Source: Candidatus Thorarchaeota archaeon
Lineage (GTDB): Archaea; Asgardarchaeota; Heimdallarchaeia; Hodarchaeales; Hodarchaeaceae
DNA length: 32,000 nucleotides
Assembly: GCA_048882505.1 (NCBI GenBank)
Contig: JBHLRO010000030.1
Span: 1 to 32,000 of the forward strand
Direction of reading: 5' to 3'
The notes under the pieces were generated by a model that saw nothing but the letters and a program-made list of their open reading frames with translations, was not told the DNA's origin and searched no databases. The translations under genes and the position numbers were made by a program. Below are positions 19,071 through 19,225 of this stretch, piece by piece (position 1 is the stretch's first letter; every line of letters begins with the position of its first letter).

Positions 19071-19225
19071 CCGGAAGTTAAGCCGAGTTTCGTTCTGATC
19101 TGTACTGTTATGCGCGAGCTTACGGGAACATCAGAAAACGGGTATTGCCCGTTCATAGGGCTCGAGTAACACCCGGTCTCATTCCGAAAGATATGAAGGA
19201 ATTTCTTCATTCCGGGAACCCGGAA
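19071..19225 (+). rRNA. rrf: 5S rRNA gene, circularly permuted (3' half 19077-19143, ATT linker, 5' half 19147-19188, intron, 19219-19225)
   Basis: Conserved 5S blocks CCGGAAGTTAAGCC, loop E TGTA/GAA, GCGA tetraloop, CATAG and AACACCCGGTCTCATTCCGAA are all present but in swapped order. Helices: I GCCCGTT/AACGGGT, II GGGCTCG/CGAGTTTC, III CCGG/CCGG, V TTCTGAT/ATCAGAA. Confidence 0.9.
19189..19218 (+). other. Putative 30-nt archaeal-type (BHB/BHL) intron in 5S loop C
   Basis: Its removal restores the consensus TCTCATTCCGAA|CCCGGAA. Central helix TCCG/CGGG, AAA bulge, and intron stem GA..ATGAAG/CTTCAT..TC. Confidence 0.7.

Follow-up and report, generated by a model that had tools for sequence, protein, structure and literature searches.

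Background

The 5S ribosomal RNA (rRNA) is universal, and in Halococcus morrhuae it carries a long insertion that is retained in the mature RNA. An interrupted loop C would have to be restored for the binding of protein uL5. Archaeal introns of the relaxed type (HBh' or bulge-helix-loop, BHL) are described at non-canonical positions of transfer RNAs (tRNAs), in the 16S/23S rRNA of Thermoproteales and Desulfurococcales and in cbf5 mRNA, and they are cut by splicing endonucleases (EndA) of the (alpha-beta)2 or epsilon2 form (PMC5829648, PMC7714728); only these two forms cut relaxed motifs, aided by a specific loop (PMC5829648). RNA-seq and cleavage assays have demonstrated that a permuted gene of the signal recognition particle (SRP) RNA of Thermoproteus tenax is circularised by the tRNA splicing endonuclease (Plagens et al. 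2015, PMC4731332). Permuted 5S rRNAs are described from organelles (Valach et al. 2014, PMC4267664). In the archaea studied so far the splicing endonuclease has not been reported in 5S maturation, and the 5′ end of the Haloferax 5S is made by tRNase Z (cited in PMC7714728). Here we surveyed a stretch of 32,000 nucleotides (nt) of a Heimdallarchaeia genome (GCA_048882505.1, contig JBHLRO010000030.1, positions 1 to 32,000), called the window below, which contains a circularly permuted 5S rRNA gene whose loop C is interrupted by a 30-nt insert. This insert is probably a mini-intron of the archaeal splicing-endonuclease type, in the permuted 5S of a Hodarchaeales-like Heimdall archaeon. The kind of intron is a known one; its host RNA and its context are new.

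The literature search found no report of an intron in 5S rRNA, in line with an earlier note made from the letters of the window alone, whose author knew of none. No description of a permuted Asgard 5S was found in the literature either, and the authors of the closed Heimdallarchaeum genomes state that 5S genes “could not be predicted” (PMC8813620).

The insert and its host gene

The insert, AGATATGAAGGAATTTCTTCATTCCGGGAA (19189-19218, plus strand), is a discrete interruption of loop C. Its excision gives TCTCATTCCGAAC, closed by CCGG 19173-76 paired with CCGG 19220-23, and the excision product TCTCATTCCGAACCCGGAA is the uninterrupted loop C of all 15 aligned same-genus sequences, the consensus of which, unbroken in 15/15, reads TCTC[A/G]TTCCGAACC[C/T][G/A]GAAAC. 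The covariance model used throughout (R1, built from 54 insert-free Heimdall sequences) aligns to the window's gene over its whole length with a score of 120 bits, and the extra bases fall in one insert state, immediately following CAUUCCGAA. The insert lies just 7 nt upstream of the predicted 3′ end of the mature sequence because the gene is circularly permuted.

The host gene extends from about 19062 to 19236 on the plus strand, with its halves swapped, its native ends looped together and a bulge-helix-bulge (BHB) stem at its flanks. Helix II (3′ strand), helices V and IV, and helix I (3′ strand) follow one another in 19077-19142; helix I is then capped by a short loop at about 19143-46, and 19147-19188 together with 19219-19225 provides the 5′ strands of helices I and II, then helix III and loop C. 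The un-permuted, insert-free sequence (115-119 nt) folds as the 5S Y shape. In the terminal BHB the leader CCGG 19071-74 pairs with CCGG 19220-23, with bulges AAG and AAA, beside a stem of GATCCTG 19064-70 and CAGGATC 19227-33. The cuts predicted by a per-sequence BHB scan, after the second base of each bulge, bring CCCGGAA together with GTTAAGCC as in the canonical 5S, so that the native junction CCCGGAA-GUUAAGCC is restored. The outer stem takes covariant forms among Heimdall families (CTCTG/CAGAG, GTGGT/ACCAC and the 11-base-pair (bp) GAAACTCATCG/CGATGAGTTTC).

Judged from its sequence, the locus is a 5S gene by content and not by gene order. Rfam at its gathering threshold finds no 5S in the window, and RF00001 in genomic order gives a partial match at 19043-19143 with 20.3 bits against a cut-off of 38, a low score that is due to the swapped order in which the gene is written. 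Neither Rfam nor R1 finds another 5S-like locus in the same genome (4.3 Mb in 83 contigs, 94.5% complete), and the permuted gene should be functional because it is the sole 5S candidate in a genome of this completeness.

Architecture of the putative splice motif

The insert forms a hairpin (h') by the pairs G19190-C19212 and A19191-T19211 and by 19193-98 with 19205-10, with T19192 bulged and a loop of GAATTT. Next to it TCCG 19183-86 of the exon pairs with CGGG 19213-16 of the insert (helix H; U-G, C-G, C-G, G-C), and AAA 19187-89 is bulged between helix H and the hairpin. This structure is the minimum-energy fold of 19171-19225 and likewise of the predicted 149-nt circular intermediate. Under the definition of PMC5829648 it is a relaxed HBh'/BHL motif, with the helix UCCG/CGGG, the bulge AA↓A (the arrow marks the predicted cut), the hairpin 19190-19212 and a 3′ site in a 6x3 internal loop closed by helix III. 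The earlier note had described a 30-nt segment whose removal restores the loop C consensus, the pairing of TCCG with CGGG, the AAA bulge, the stem within the insert, and cuts of bulge-helix-loop form at 19188/89 and 19218/19. The restoration was borne out by direct reading and by the same-genus loops, every pairing is present, and the relaxed form with its two predicted cuts agrees with the fold and with the frame scan given below.

Thirty insert-bearing sequences, the window included, were scanned for the frame of the motif, and 21 distinct sequences were aligned for covariation. A common frame of a 4-bp helix H, a bulge AA↓N and a hairpin h' of 2-9 bp is found in 29 of the 30 (the exception is L153). 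The exon UCCG (UCUG in one sequence) pairs with intron positions 25-28 (CGGG), the 3-nt bulge of the 5′ boundary is made of the exon AA and intron base 1, intron positions 2-24 form the hairpin, and the 3′ boundary AA↓C (AU↓C in one) is followed by CCGG of helix III. In the 21-sequence alignment the structure is 91.6% paired, and 8 of the 9 pairs of hairpin h' are changed on both sides, so that the intron structure has compensatory changes on this hairpin. Out of 500 shuffles none reached the alignment on four of five measures and one reached it on the fifth; the covariation score was reached by none.

A competing fold was also considered, in which exon loop C pairs with the interior of the intron and the 5′ strand of helix III with its 3′ end. 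It is the minimum-energy fold in 8 of 17 sequences, has zero covariation support and was rejected.

Table 1. Features of the permuted 5S rRNA gene and its insert (window positions; arrows mark predicted cuts)
Feature	Positions	Strand	Basis or remark
Outer processing stem, 5′ strand (GATCCTG 19064-70)	19062..19070	+	Fold; stem covaries between Heimdall families
Leader CCGG and bulge AA↓G, predicted 5′ cut 19076/77	19071..19077	+	BHB scan
Exon 1 of permuted 5S, including helix III 5′ strand 19173-76 and loop C up to CCGAA	19077..19188	+	5S fold, RNAalifold, R1 120 bits
Exon strand UCCG of 4-bp helix H	19183..19186	+	Pairs with 19213-16; paired in 21/21 aligned insert-bearing sequences
3-nt bulge AA↓A, predicted 5′ splice site 19188/89	19187..19189	+	AA↓N frame in 29/30 scanned insert-bearing sequences (exception L153)
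30-nt insert, probable intron: nt 1 in bulge, hairpin h' 19190-19212, CGGG 19213-16, AA 19217-18	19189..19218	+	R1 alignment, fold, covariation, frame scan
AA↓C, predicted 3′ splice site 19218/19, 3-nt side of 6x3 internal loop opposite 19177-82	19217..19219	+	Fold
Exon 2 CCCGGAA; CCGG 19220-23 is helix III 3′ strand (mature) and terminal-BHB central helix (precursor)	19219..19225	+	Folds, BHB scan
3′ bulge AA↓A (predicted cut 19225/26) and outer stem 3′ strand 19227-33, reaching about 19236	19224..19236	+	BHB scan, fold

The locus lies in an intergenic gap between an open reading frame of 320 amino acids (aa) on the minus strand and one of 274 aa on the plus strand, and is crossed only by short overlapping reading frames. 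A 7-nt direct repeat, CATTCCG, is seen at 19180-19186 and 19209-19215; the resemblance of the intron's 3′ end to the end of the 5′ exon may be a hint at the origin of the insert. Insert and flanks have no second copy elsewhere in the same genome, and an origin from a repeat or mobile element was rejected on that ground. Elsewhere in the window, 15395-15468 is an ordinary intron-less tRNA-Val (CAC) of 61 bits.

Same-site inserts in Loki-type genes

Inserts at the same site of loop C are found in a second Asgard family (f14), which is probably Lokiarchaeia. Its genomes are about 2-5.5 Mb, its 5S loci are low in GC, and the lengths of many of its permuted 5S matches are close to 190 nt or 221 nt. 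The same-site insert is present in 23 of the 102 permuted 5S loci of this family and in 15 metagenome contigs; at least 30 of these genes and contigs are distinct. A single scan of metagenomes returned no insert-bearing gene of Heimdall type, all having Loki-type exons. The inserts are 30 nt long with one exception of 31 nt, and end in YCGGGAA with one exception in YCGGGAT; the terminal BHB and the downstream CCCGGAA are fully conserved in the genes that bear them.

Insert-free species are common within the same genera as insert-bearing ones. Between L153, which has the insert, and L177, which is free of it, 123 of 126 exon positions are shared and the difference is a precise 30 nt. In many other genomes, some of them reported as 99-100% complete, the insert-bearing gene is the only 5S copy found. 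The earlier note had proposed a comparison of presence and absence and of stem covariation in related genomes, and the outcome is favourable to it on both counts, in the patchy occurrence of same-site inserts and in the covariation of h' given above. A single 30-nt element at the same site in two Asgard classes, missing in close relatives, offers a compact system for studying the arrival and loss of archaeal introns.

Two further loci show other arrangements. L158 (G277:C1:82288-82519) has a different 30-nt insert about 5 nt upstream in loop C, which repeats the adjacent exon sequence GGATAATACCCGGTCCC and also ends in CCCGGGAA. The contig of L185 (LAZR01004007.1, 1-210) opens with the 3′ end of an insert-free permuted 5S, and about 30 nt further on carries a copy with the loop C insert that is without its first 55 nt or so.

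Other sites of Loki-type 5S genes are occupied as well. Inserts of 29-30 nt are found at two sites of helix IV in 10 sequences; eight of these have the strict hBHBh' form (L127, L146, L147, L148, L150, L160, L169 and L194), their predicted cuts reproduce the insert-free sequences, and two fail the strict test (L145 and L183). On this predicted-cut evidence introns of strict BHB type and about 30 nt exist in Loki-type 5S genes, yet not every insert need be an intron.

Distribution of the permuted gene

By R1 the permuted gene is present in 79 of 83 Heimdallarchaeia genomes, and full-length matches occur also in many other Asgard families. RNAalifold on the 54 relatives recovers the permuted topology, with covariation in every one of helices I-V and with 25 of 35 pairs changed in a compensatory way. 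Apart from the window's gene, the full-length Heimdall matches are 155-164 nt long, bar one of 176 nt.

This longer match, L124 (G041:C30:2947-3122), has a low score of 72 bits, and its extra bases apparently lie in the 3′ flank, outside loop C. The two CCTGT strands of its helix III are non-complementary and a leader ACAG may supply the partner; its break point or processing may differ from the others. In a same-genus genome, at 1065-1140 of L009 (G008:C16:11199-11347), there is a partial permuted 5S-like copy, consisting of the first half only (R1 31 bits), about 350 nt upstream of the intact gene.

A canonical 5S above the Rfam cut-off was found in 2 of 41 relatives, L002 (G023:C798) and L003 (G005:C310). 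Both are on contigs of less than 3 kb and permuted copies are also present, and the two canonical genes are probably binning contaminants. Permutation together with inserts explains why 5S genes have gone unpredicted in Asgard genomes, even closed ones (PMC8813620), and genome-quality criteria that require a 5S gene are affected by it.

Splicing enzymes

The genome encodes a 182-aa EndA alpha of crenarchaeal type, which among solved structures comes closest to catalytic alpha subunits from crenarchaea (PDB 3P1Z_B, E = 1e-41). Its alignment with the alpha subunit of Aeropyrum pernix is gap-free through the specific-loop region and places a Lys opposite the residue K44 there. A second EndA paralogue of 213 aa has no catalytic His by eye. 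The EndA domains are on contig 18, about 31 kb apart, at 41332-41586 (alpha-like, with the Tyr/His/Lys triad) and at 72299-72559 (the one without a catalytic His by eye). RtcB is also encoded (541 bits). An EndA suited to relaxed motifs and RtcB are both present by their sequences, and their activity is predicted. ARAGORN gives introns in 23 of the 39 tRNAs of this genome, which is a noisy estimate.

Weighing of the explanations

The case for the insert, made from comparative sequence data, rests on the exact restoration of the consensus loop and on the same frame and architecture in 30 other sequences. Several observations weigh against the intron reading. The strict hBHBh' form was found at loop C in 0 of the 30 scanned sequences, in any frame or orientation: the motif has H, the 5′ bulge and h' but no adjacent outer helix h, and its 3′ site lies outside a canonical 3-nt bulge, with 5 or 6 unpaired bases opposite (6 in the window, 19177-82). 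Helix H is near-invariant; its single change, from C to U on one side, leaves a G-U pair, and the helix shows no compensatory covariation. The 55-nt stretch folds no better than its shuffles (z = -0.54), so folding energy gives no evidence for the insert. Among the 79 Heimdallarchaeia genomes with the permuted gene, the insert is present in one, that of the window. In some Loki-type genes (L128, L152 and L165) the helix I cap holds inserts of about 30 nt that fit no BHB form and fold as an extension or branch of helix I. The specific-loop Lys, opposite K44 of A. pernix, is identified by alignment.

The main alternative, which we regard as unlikely, is that the 30 nt are kept in the mature 5S, where they would form an additional hairpin on loop C, in the manner of the retained insertion of Halococcus morrhuae. 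The non-canonical 3′ boundary would suit it, and so would the helix I cap inserts, which look like plain helix extensions, and the insert-containing fold, which is a stable continuous hairpin in a retained circle of 149 nt. However, the conserved UCCG of loop C would then be locked in a helix, and a length fixed at about 30 nt (one 31), either present or absent and free of gradual drift, is not what such an expansion would lead one to expect; nor are the precise loss between the near-identical genes L153 and L177 and the strict BHB introns that sister inserts of the same size form in helix IV. It is far less probable that the gene is an inactive or decaying copy or an assembly error, the true 5S being in the unassembled 5% of the genome. 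The assembly is a draft of 83 contigs and exon identity to congeners is only about 85%, but helices I-V are intact, as is the terminal BHB, neither Rfam nor R1 detects a further 5S-like locus, inserts of this type sit in the sole 5S copy found of many genomes, including those reported as nearly or fully complete, and the insert is neither a repeat nor accompanied by an assembly-like duplication.

The position of the insert, so close to the predicted 3′ end, and a leader that duplicates CCGGAAG would also allow a single trimming step, in which the insert and everything downstream are dropped as a 3′ trailer and the leader CCGG supplies the 3′ strand of helix III. We give this very little credence, as the resulting junction, CCGAA+CCGG or CCGAAG+CCGG, would lack the C of GAAC or have it altered, a C that every aligned Asgard sequence keeps, no bulge-helix motif brings 19188/89 to a leader site, and CCCGGAA and the terminal BHB downstream are fully conserved where the insert is present. 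With plain trimming of a 3′ trailer, the alternative named in the earlier note, either helix III would be deprived of its 3′ strand or loop C would no longer match the conserved GAAC; we rate it unlikely. The reading as a real intron, as the earlier note had it, is on balance the likely one; comparison supports it through the same-site inserts, the covarying hairpin, the precise presence and absence, the strict BHB introns nearby and the presence of EndA and RtcB.

Proposed pathway and its meaning

For the probable intron the following course of maturation is suggested; cleavage, ligation, the order of steps and the final circularity of the 5S are all inferred from sequence. Leader and trailer of the primary transcript would form the BHB, EndA would cut at 19076/77 and 19225/26, and RtcB would join the ends into a 149-nt circle in which CCCGGAA-GUUAAGCC is restored. 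The intron motif would present helix H (UCCG with CGGG), the 5′ site in the AA↓A bulge and the 3′ site AA↓C in the internal loop closed by helix III. Cutting by EndA at 19188/89 and 19218/19 and ligation by RtcB would then yield a 119-nt 5S with a normal loop C and a 30-nt intron, probably circular. The 119-nt 5S would have its helix I capped and would be circular unless reopened.

Circularisation may precede splicing and so free helix III to close the internal loop of the intron, because CCGG 19220-23 has two possible partners, the leader and the 5′ strand of helix III. As they use different bases, the intron motif and the terminal BHB can coexist in the primary transcript. The 3′ strand runs through CGGG (helix H), AA↓C, CCGG (terminal BHB), AA↓A and the outer stem, and all four predicted cuts follow AA. 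The predicted junction of the spliced exons reads CAUUCCGAACCCGGAA, and CAUUCCGAACCCGGAAGUUAAGCC spans both the intron junction and the circularisation junction.

A wider reading is offered tentatively. The 30-nt elements may be a family of mini-introns that has settled in exposed parts of Asgard 5S, namely loop C and two positions in helix IV, and has crossed from the Loki-type to one Hodarchaeales-like lineage; intron and terminal motifs would then be one array (bulge, 4-bp helix, bulge, 4-bp helix, bulge, with four AA↓N sites), and two rounds of EndA and RtcB would give a circular 5S and a circular intron. If this were true, the tRNA-splicing enzymes would be indispensable for assembling the large ribosomal subunit in those archaea that are most closely related to eukaryotes. 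If the insert is indeed spliced, a working 5S in these archaea would need two tRNA-type rounds of cutting and joining, which would tie ribosome assembly to EndA and RtcB.

Comparison with known systems

With the insertion of Halococcus morrhuae the insert shares its place within an archaeal 5S rRNA gene. The Halococcus insertion is far longer, sits in another part of the 5S and lacks boundaries of BHB type. The organellar 5S rRNAs have in common with the present locus a permutation at the level of the gene; they are organellar, and the part of the source used here makes no mention of splicing-endonuclease processing or of an intron (PMC4267664). The SRP RNA of T. tenax and permuted tRNA genes are like the host gene in their swapped halves and in a BHB at the new termini that restores a functionally important loop region. 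The SRP RNA is, however, a different RNA without an additional internal intron, and circularisation is here predicted only. Nearest to the insert itself are the archaeal HBh'/BHL introns, which likewise have a 4-bp helix between exon and intron, a 3-nt bulge with one cut, an intron hairpin and a second cut in a loop, and with which it shares precise boundaries, a patchy distribution and a crenarchaeal-type EndA alpha in the genome. It differs from the known members of that group in that its host is 5S rRNA, its gene is permuted, its length is nearly fixed at 30 nt and four of the four predicted cuts come after AA.
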